Shown: piece by piece, positions 19,000 through 21,900 of the stretch
Layout: each line of letters opens with the position of its first letter
Position numbering within the stretch: position 1 is the stretch's first letter
Assembly: GCF_044324785.1 (NCBI RefSeq)
Contig: NZ_CP172127.1
From: Escherichia coli
Lineage (GTDB): Bacteria; Pseudomonadota; Gammaproteobacteria; Enterobacterales; Enterobacteriaceae
Length of the DNA stretch: 64,000 nt
Reading direction: 5' to 3' (one strand)
Made by a program: the position numbers

Positions 19000-21900
19000 T
19001 AGTTTGTAAACCGTCCGGCACTCAATCGCCAAAAAGAAAAAAGCCAGCAGATAATCACTGCTGGCGTGGCGATTAACACCAATACTCAGTCACACATGAT
19101 GTCCGCAAATCAGTAGTCAGAATGACTCCCCTCCCACTGCATCAGTTCTTCAAGCATAGTTAATCGTTGTGGGACGCTTAACCAACGCAACCAGCACAAC
19201 TTCGCTGTCGCGGTAAAATAGTGCTGATAAAACTGACGCATGGGGCACCTCCTTGCTTCATCGTTAGGAATTATTGACTTAATATAGGGAAAATAAAATT
19301 GCTGACTTTTGCGCAGGAGTTCCCCTTTTATGCCATCTGCTCGTCTGCAACAACAGTTCATCCGCCTGTGGCAATGCTGCGAGGGTAAATCGCAGGACAC
19401 GACGCTCAACGAACTGGCAGCGTTATTGAGCTGCTCGCGTCGTCATATGCGCACCCTGCTCAACACCATGCAGGATCGCGGCTGGCTGACGTGGGAAGCG
19501 GAAGTCGGGCGCGGCAAACGCTCGCGTCTGACATTCCTCTATACCGGGCTGGCGCTTCAGCAACAGCGAGCAGAGGACCTGCTGGAGCAGGATCGTATCG
19601 ATCAACTAGTGCAGTTGGTTGGCGACAAAGCGACTGTGCGGCAAATGCTGGTTTCTCATCTGGGCCGCAGCTTCCGCCAGGGGCGACACATCCTGCGCGT
19701 GCTCTACTATCGTCCATTGCGTAATCTGCTACCTGGCAGTGCATTGCGCCGTTCCGAAACCCATATCGCCCGGCAAATCTTCAGTTCGCTAACGCGCATA
19801 AATGAGGAAAATGGGGAACTGGAGGCAGACATCGCCCACCACTGGCAGCAAATTTCACCGCTTCACTGGCGTTTCTTTTTGCGTCCAGGAGTCCATTTTC
19901 ATCATGGTCGTGAACTTGACATGGACGACGTGATCGCCTCTTTAAAACGAATCAATACGCTGCCGCTCTATTCGCATATTGCTGACATTGTGTCGCCGAC
20001 GCCCTGGACGCTGGATATCCATCTCACGCAACCGGACCGCTGGTTACCGTTACTACTGGGGCAAGTTCCGGCGATGATCCTGCCGCGCGAATGGGAAACC
20101 CTCAGCAACTTTGCCAGCCATCCCATCGGAACGGGTCCGTATGCGGTGATCCGCAACAGCACCAATCAACTGAAAATTCAGGCATTCGATGACTTCTTCG
20201 GTTACCGGGCATTAATCGACGAAGTTAACGTCTGGGTTCTGCCGGAAATTGCCGACGAGCCAGCCGGAGGGCTGATGCTAAAAGGGCCACAGGGCGAGGA
20301 AAAAGAGATTGAAAGCCGCCTGGAGGAAGGTTGCTACTATTTACTGTTCGACAGCCGCACCCATCGCGGGGCGAATCAGCAAGTCAGGGACTGGGTAAGC
20401 TATGTGCTTTCTCCAACTAATCTGGTCTATTTCGCTGAGGAACAGTACCAGCAACTGTGGTTCCCGGCTTATGGACTGCTCCCACGTTGGCACCATGCTC
20501 GTCCGACACATTGCGAAAAACCCGCCGGGCTGGAAAGCCTCACCCTGACCTTTTATCAGGATCATATTGAGCATCGAGTGATTGCCGGGATCATGCAGCA
20601 GATTCTGGCAAGTCACCAGGTCACGCTGGAAATCAAAGAGATCAGCTACGATCAGTGGCATGAAGGAGAGATCGAGAGCGATATCTGGCTTAACAGCGCC
20701 AACTTTACGCTGCCGCTGGATTTTTCGCTGTTCGCGCACCTGTGCGAGGTGCCGCTGCTCCAACACTGTATTCCGATCGACTGGCAAGCCGACGCCGCCC
20801 GCTGGCGCAATGGCGAAATGAACCTGGCGAACTGGTGCCAGCAACTGGTCGCCAGCAAAGCAATGGTGCCACTTATCCACCACTGGCTGATCATTCAGGG
20901 GCAACGCAGTATGCGCGGTCTGCGTATGAACACCCTAGGCTGGTTCGATTTTAAATCAGCGTGGTTTGCGCCGCCGGATCCAGAGTAGCTTGCGCCTTTT
21001 GGCGGTGATGAGCGCGTTTTTATATTCAGACGGAATGAATAAAATACATTACTTTTATATTTTCTCTGTTTTATGCATCGTCTGATTAGCGTCGCAAATA
21101 AGATTAAAGAAGGGGCATTCCAGCCCCTCTTTCATATTCTGAGTTAATCAATAACGGCGCAGCCTAGCCGTGTTCTGGCCGGAAAGGTCAGCTTTTTCAG
21201 GTTAACCTCGCGCAGGTCAGTCATACCAACGGCTATTGTTCGTTTCAGCATTGCTCAGGTCAACCTCGAGACGGTCAATACCACAAATGACAACCCCGTT
21301 AAAGTAAGCATGACTCAGATCAATGCACCCGGTACTGGTGCTCTCTTTCAGCTGCAAATCCAGAGTAAGTATCGCCTCATCTCCAATAAAAAAACTGACT
21401 CTTAACGTATCTCCTGACGAGAGTGAGGCCTTCGCGGCCATATTTTCCGGATCTATTGCATGTTCTTTGAGTTTATTAAAATTTATCAGCCAGTGGGTAA
21501 ACTTATCACGCGCATCCCCATCTACAGCCCCGGTAAAGTATTTTGAGTAGTCATCACAATTCTGGAAATAAAATGCATCCTTCAGAATTTGCCTTGCCGC
21601 AGTCTGGGAATGTTTATCTGACCGGAAGAGATTGCGTAACGTCTCCCATAGCTCTTCAAAGATATTCATATTCTCGGTCTTTTTAACCAGGTTAACCATC
21701 CTGATAATCTGAGAATGAGTAAGGCCTGGATCTTTAGTGGTATTACTTGCAGGGATACTAATCTGTTCTGGGTTTCTTACTTTCATGCTGATAGCTCCAC
21801 TCTGAGTTAAAAACTCAGAATAAGCGTCCTGAATAAGAATACTGTCAAAAATCGCTCATTCACGCAATAAGCCGTTGCATTACCGATTTTGACTGTGCTA

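Follow-up and report, generated by a model that had tools for sequence, protein, structure and literature searches.

The window analysed here is a 64,000-nt stretch of Escherichia coli DNA. The locus under study comprises leuD, the small RNA SgrS together with the sgrT reading frame, and sgrR, the product of which activates transcription of sgrS (Table 1). LeuD of the window is 99–100% identical to E. coli LeuD (tblastn). SgrS matches its Rfam family with a score of 227.6 bits (E = 1.4e-64; gathering score 37). sgrR and sgrS are divergently transcribed, with a conserved intergenic promoter between them; the exact SgrR protein was found in 540 blocks of public assemblies, and it contains the Pfam domains SgrR_N and SBP_bac_5. 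Two other RNA elements were observed at their expected places, the leu operon leader (RF00512, 14128–14277, + strand, 143 bits) and the TPP riboswitch (RF00059, 22027–22126, + strand, 66 bits).

Table 1. Features of the leuD–sgrS–sgrR locus, with positions in the window
Feature	Position	Strand	Basis and remarks
Left high-divergence block beside the indel	18800–19002	+	~10% from K-12, compared to 1.5–3% upstream
leuD, last gene of leuABCD	18397–19002	+	ORF list; TAG stop at 19000–19002
Spacer, leuD stop to SgrS 3′ end	19003–19035		33 nt; deletion junction
SgrS intrinsic terminator	19031–19065	-	Terminator scan; stem at 19043–19065
SgrS small RNA, full length	19036–19262	-	Rfam RF00534, model positions 1–232
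Right high-divergence block	19036–19135	-	27 mismatches per 100 nt vs K-12
sgrT ORF, 43 aa	19110–19241	-	ATG intact; translation MRQFYQHYFTATAKLCWLRWLSVPQRLTMLEELMQWEGSHSDY (stop)
Divergent sgrS/sgrR promoter region	19263–19329		Almost identical to K-12, at most 2 mismatches per 50 nt
sgrR, transcriptional activator of sgrS, 552 aa	19330–20988	+	ORF; 98% identity to K-12 SgrR

Both features of the dual-function RNA are present in SgrS of the window, the SgrT ORF and the conserved 3′ base-pairing region. The base-pairing core, ATCATGTGTGACTGAGTATTGGTGT, is identical in the window, in K-12, in other Escherichia and in the Citrobacter and Salmonella loci aligned. The C-terminus of SgrT reads …EELMQWEGSHSDY in the window and …EGLMQWDDRNSES (stop) in K-12; on contig L084, which is identical to the window, the gene call at this place is PF15894 SgrT. 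The SgrS terminator consists of one GC-rich 8-bp stem (GCCAGCAG/CUGCUGGC) and a 7-nt loop, followed by UUUUUUCUUUUU; the U-tract is thus U6CU5, compared to U8 in K-12. With a calculated RNA folding energy of -15.5 kcal/mol (z = -4.2), it is slightly stronger than the terminator of K-12 (-13.5 kcal/mol). SgrS of the window therefore possesses a predicted Rho-independent terminator with U-tract, which is the Hfq-binding module, and Hfq binding is predicted. Altogether, sgrR, the SgrR-dependent promoter of sgrS, sgrT, the region that pairs with ptsG and the terminator of Hfq type are all intact, and the SetA arm alone is missing.

In MG1655, sgrR (- strand) is followed by sgrS (77367–77593, + strand), setA (77621–78799, + strand) and leuD (78848–79453, - strand). 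The distance from the sgrS 3′ end to the leuD stop, including setA, is 1,254 nt in K-12, compared to 33 nt in the window. In the BLAST alignment of the two sequences, the match stops at 18996 and restarts at 19037, with 40 nt in the window corresponding to 1,261 nt in K-12. Searches of the whole window with K-12 SetA (tblastn) and with setA plus its flanks (blastn) returned chance matches only, with E > 0.8. These results bear out the observation in the preliminary description of this DNA, and its interpretation in part. It had placed the SgrS 3′ end about 33 nt from the leuD stop, with which the ORF and Rfam coordinates agree; it had located K-12 setA between sgrS and leuD, as the MG1655 coordinates do; and it had regarded a setA segment of ~1.2 kb as absent, which is what the alignment shows, with setA in K-12 and a gap in the window. 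Its statement that K-12 setA is co-transcribed with sgrS agrees with Sun & Vanderpool 2011 (as cited in PMC4509938), who reported transcription reading through the sgrS terminator; setA expression by this route amounts to a few per cent of that of SgrS (PMC4509938). Different from the K-12 sgrS-setA operon (Sun & Vanderpool 2011; Morita et al. 2015), the window contains no setA directly downstream of the sgrS terminator.

Two further observations concern the DNA around the junction. The inverted repeat AATCGCCA … TGGCGATT (19024–19074) brackets the SgrS terminator hairpin, and the downstream arm of the repeat falls precisely on the junction; on the + strand, the repeat lengthens the hairpin, which then folds at -23.4 kcal/mol. 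This repeat may be due to chance. We also considered that the deletion had taken away a terminator of the leu operon, in which case leuABCD transcription would continue into sgrS in antisense. However, no + strand consensus terminator was found 3′ of leuD in the window, and none was found in K-12 by the same terminator scan; no difference between the window and K-12 can be claimed on this point, and the idea was rejected.

The locus was then compared with 5,426 complete E. coli genomes. The 131-nt junction (18960–19090) was found in one uninterrupted piece in 2,142 of them, and it had no match in any setA-positive genome. When a 1.5-kb leuD–sgrS–sgrR query was used, it was contiguous in 2,165 genomes and matched in two separate places in the remainder. 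K-12 setA was found in 3,241 genomes, in 3,239 of which the match covered at least 80% of the setA length. The setA-bearing genomes and those with the setA-less junction (2,156) together number fewer than 5,426, which gives no sign that setA was relocated. Since the junction is so common, the setA-less arrangement is an ordinary one, present in ~40% of complete E. coli genomes, including that of O157:H7 Sakai.

Among individual genomes, IAI39 has a 327-nt sgrR–leuD interval as in the window and no setA, and the junction sequence of strain 1190 is the same as that of the window. CFT073 also has no setA, and its window-type junction is interrupted by IS200C. setA is present in K-12 and IAI1. We take the phylogroups of these strains, by established assignment, to be E (Sakai), F (IAI39), B2 (CFT073), A (K-12) and B1 (IAI1). 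The preliminary description had framed the absence of setA as peculiar to the strain and had pointed to a survey across phylogroups. That framing does not stand: besides the 2,142 E. coli genomes, the junction occurs in E. albertii, E. whittamii and Escherichia sp. E1V33 (see below), and among the named strains setA is missing from Sakai, IAI39 and CFT073 and present in K-12 and IAI1.

The setA-less arrangement is also already known: reference genomes have contained it from the sequencing of O157:H7 Sakai and CFT073 onwards. In the reconstruction of González-Alba et al. 2019 (PMC6896753), setA is listed as “acquired” in the A/B1 sublineage, a gain there rather than a loss in other lineages; its specificity to that sublineage is already part of pangenome work. 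In the study of Horler & Vanderpool 2009 (PMC2760817), setA is drawn only where it is present; there, SgrS of CFT073 and SgrS of O157 are 99% identical to each other, and both are just 88% identical to that of K-12. The Sakai-type locus is the one with this CFT073/O157-type SgrS. Like the window, the sgrR–sgrS–leuD locus of Sakai (ECs_0074–ECs_0075) has a sgrR–leuD interval of 327 nt, with just 6 substitutions; it lacks setA, has an equal SgrS terminator and spacer, and carries espY2 downstream of sgrR. One of the 6 differences, which is known (PMC2760817), changes the sgrT start codon from ATG to ATT in Sakai, whereas the window keeps ATG.

In CFT073, IS200C lies between sgrS and leuD (3862–4679 in locus L090), inside the U-tract of the SgrS terminator. 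The insertion site reads …CTGCTGGCTTTTTT / GTGCACAG…IS200… / CTTTTTGGCGATTGAG, with slashes at the borders. The insertion may change the SgrS 3′ end, and Hfq binding there, in this strain.

As to the source of the window itself, positions 10000–30000 are 98.0–98.2% identical to the best of the 5,426 complete E. coli genomes. Among the closest of these are MEI003, ST70 (O7:H15), M114, TUM14759 and several O166:H15 strains. Over 7.6 kb, the window has 100% identity to two draft assemblies, GCA_044102835.1 and GCA_044685845.1. The source lineage is common, yet it is poorly represented among complete RefSeq genomes.

For other species, a scan of one genome per species with SgrR of the window gave 80 loci (E. 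coli, E. fergusonii, E. marmotae and E. ruysiae are not among them). setA lies between sgrR and leuD in all 76 loci from outside Escherichia, with SetA 75–91% identical to the K-12 protein at the amino acid level (tblastn), and it is also present at the locus of Escherichia sp. MOD1-EC7003. The setA-positive genera include Citrobacter, Salmonella (arizonae/diarizonae), Enterobacter, Klebsiella, Kluyvera and Buttiauxella. Citrobacter, Salmonella arizonae/diarizonae, Enterobacter and Klebsiella have the order sgrR<>sgrS … leuD in common with the window; different from the window, they keep setA between sgrS and leuD. Of the 80 loci, setA is missing only in E. albertii, E. whittamii and Escherichia sp. 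E1V33, and in the alignments the junction sequence and spacing of all three match those of the window.

The presence of setA in every non-Escherichia locus indicates that the gene is ancestral at this place, and the identical junction in E. albertii, E. whittamii and E1V33 indicates a single deletion event. These comparisons demonstrate one old deletion of an ancestral gene within Escherichia, rather than a recent loss. The ancestral order in Enterobacteriaceae was sgrR<>sgrS-setA><leuD, from which setA and the flanking intergenic DNA were removed once, leaving 33 nt from the leuD stop to the SgrS terminator. No microhomology at the deletion borders was identified by eye in the alignments, in which the flanks are too diverged. 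The setA-less allele also retains outgroup-like flanks. Its LeuD ends in FMR (stop), as does LeuD of Citrobacter, Salmonella and Kluyvera, whereas the K-12 end is derived (…YEAKQPAFMN, stop); the SgrS terminator of the window is of a Citrobacter-like sequence type. The window is therefore, with high confidence, the setA-less leuD–sgrS–sgrR allele that is standard in non-A/B1 E. coli and in several other Escherichia species.

The setA–leuD interval itself is variable across the family. In the Citrobacter portucalensis locus (L017, 375–4489), as in several Enterobacter, Klebsiella and Raoultella loci, setA and leuD are separated by 0.4–3.5 kb or more of additional DNA. In Trabulsiella odontotermitis (L036, 4591–5653), SetA is matched in two segments, for which a frameshift or pseudogene is possible.

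Besides the indel, the window and K-12 differ in the sequences on both of its sides. The last 200 nt of leuD differ by 10.8%, compared to 1.5% for the first 400 nt of the gene, and the 3′ 110 nt of sgrS differ by 24.8% (distance matrices). The divergence is only 1.5–3% in leuC, in leuD over its first 400 nt, in 5′ sgrS and in sgrR over its first 600 nt. The right high-divergence block takes in the SgrS terminator together with the sequence upstream, as well as about 9 codons at the end of sgrT; past 19135, the identity is ~98%. In a mismatch profile with 50-nt steps, the divergence has sharp boundaries near 18800 and 19135. With such flanks, the two alleles are not linked by a clean 1.2-kb excision from K-12-like sequence.

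The distances among the sgrS 3′ ends point in the same direction. The K-12-type end is identical in MOD1-EC7003; it is 22–25% away from every setA-less allele and 22–28% away from Citrobacter and Salmonella. The setA-less alleles differ by 0.9–3.5% among themselves and by 12–17% from Citrobacter. Between K-12 and MOD1-EC7003, setA differs by 1.5% (3.3% at third codon positions), compared to 7.9% (17.6%) for the adjacent sgrR. Because setA is far less diverged than its neighbour, the setA block must have moved between Escherichia lineages. K-12 setA is no nearer to any sampled non-Escherichia genus than sgrR is, which suggests a source of Escherichia depth. Donor or intermediate relatives of the block, for example in E. 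fergusonii or E. marmotae, did not appear among the listed matches to K-12 SetA, which were near-identical E. coli sequences.

On this basis, we lean slightly towards reintroduction as the origin of the setA-positive allele of K-12 and the A/B1 strains, namely a homologous replacement from another lineage of Escherichia depth. The replaced block would comprise the 3′ end of leuD, setA and the 3′ end of sgrS. The listing of setA as an acquisition of A/B1 (PMC6896753) fits with this reading. On the more specific proposal, that two deeply diverged alleles cross Escherichia species and that the K-12/A/B1 allele is a recombinant import with its breakpoint in sgrT at about codon 32, our judgement is evenly balanced. 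If true, the textbook SgrS/SgrT of K-12 would be a chimera, with the SgrS terminator (which controls setA readthrough and Hfq binding) and the SgrT C-terminus coming from another lineage than the 5′ part; the allele in the window would be the form native to Escherichia.

An ancient balanced or trans-species polymorphism, in which both alleles predate the split of E. albertii and the A/B1 strains kept setA by vertical descent, is a credible but less probable account. It would fit the distribution of the setA-less allele over E. coli, E. albertii, E. whittamii and E1V33, with setA retained in A/B1 and MOD1-EC7003, and long retention would also give the deeply diverged flanks beside the indel. 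Third-position differences from K-12 to Citrobacter and Salmonella are about equal for SetA (47–52%) and SgrR (44–47%), as such descent would have it. However, the setA block is 5 times less diverged than the adjacent sgrR between K-12 and MOD1-EC7003, which calls for some recent transfer, and nearly all E. coli genomes with setA (3,228 of 3,241) have a copy that matches the K-12 gene at 99% identity or more. Moreover, the K-12 sgrS 3′ end is more distant from the setA-less alleles than that of Citrobacter is.

A recent, strain- or lineage-specific deletion of setA from a K-12-like ancestor would account for the ~1.2 kb missing relative to K-12, but it is very improbable, as the junction is spread over B2, E, F and D-like E. 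coli and three other Escherichia species, and flanks 10–25% off K-12 are not expected from a recent excision. The least probable reading, a collapsed or misjoined contig that lost setA, can be set aside, since two independent public assemblies (L084 and L088) are 100% identical to the window over 7.6 kb spanning the junction, a third (L086) differs by 1 nt in 7,659, and thousands of complete genomes agree.

In a strain with the window allele, sugar-phosphate stress would still lead SgrR to induce SgrS and SgrT as in K-12. Readthrough past the SgrS terminator would run antisense into leuD, and no efflux pump would be expressed from it. It had been suggested that the strain's SgrS response is uncoupled from SetA efflux; this is correct only trivially, as the locus has no setA left to couple. 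In published work (PMC4021124), SetA is of importance to growth recovery only in certain stress conditions, export of αMG by SetA is unsupported and the role of SetA is termed elusive. As the importance of SetA is confined to certain stress conditions, the physiological cost of lacking setA is probably small.

As far as the SgrR regulon is concerned, K-12 thus does not represent the species. The SetA arm is lacking in about 40% of complete E. coli genomes, among them the major extraintestinal and EHEC lineages, and these genomes carry another SgrT C-terminus and another SgrS terminator; conclusions from K-12 on sgrS-setA co-transcription and readthrough are not transferable to setA-less genomes. 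Beyond this, the only residue, and a mildly interesting one, is that the locus has two alleles with a breakpoint within sgrT.

One similar pattern was observed ~2 kb from the setA indel. Between sgrR and the TPP riboswitch/thiB, the window contains a 189-aa ORF (21217–21786, - strand) that matches the T3SS effector-like EspY2 of Sakai (ECs_0073) at 169 of 190 positions (89%; 189 residues plus stop). The espY2-like ORF is present in IAI39 and strain 1190 and absent in K-12, IAI1 and CFT073, and it is the second presence/absence difference in this region. The 3′ end of sgrR (20486–21000) has 4–11 mismatches per 50 nt vs K-12, compared to 0–4 in the rest of the gene; this diverged block directly adjoins the espY2 indel, just as diverged flanks adjoin the setA indel.
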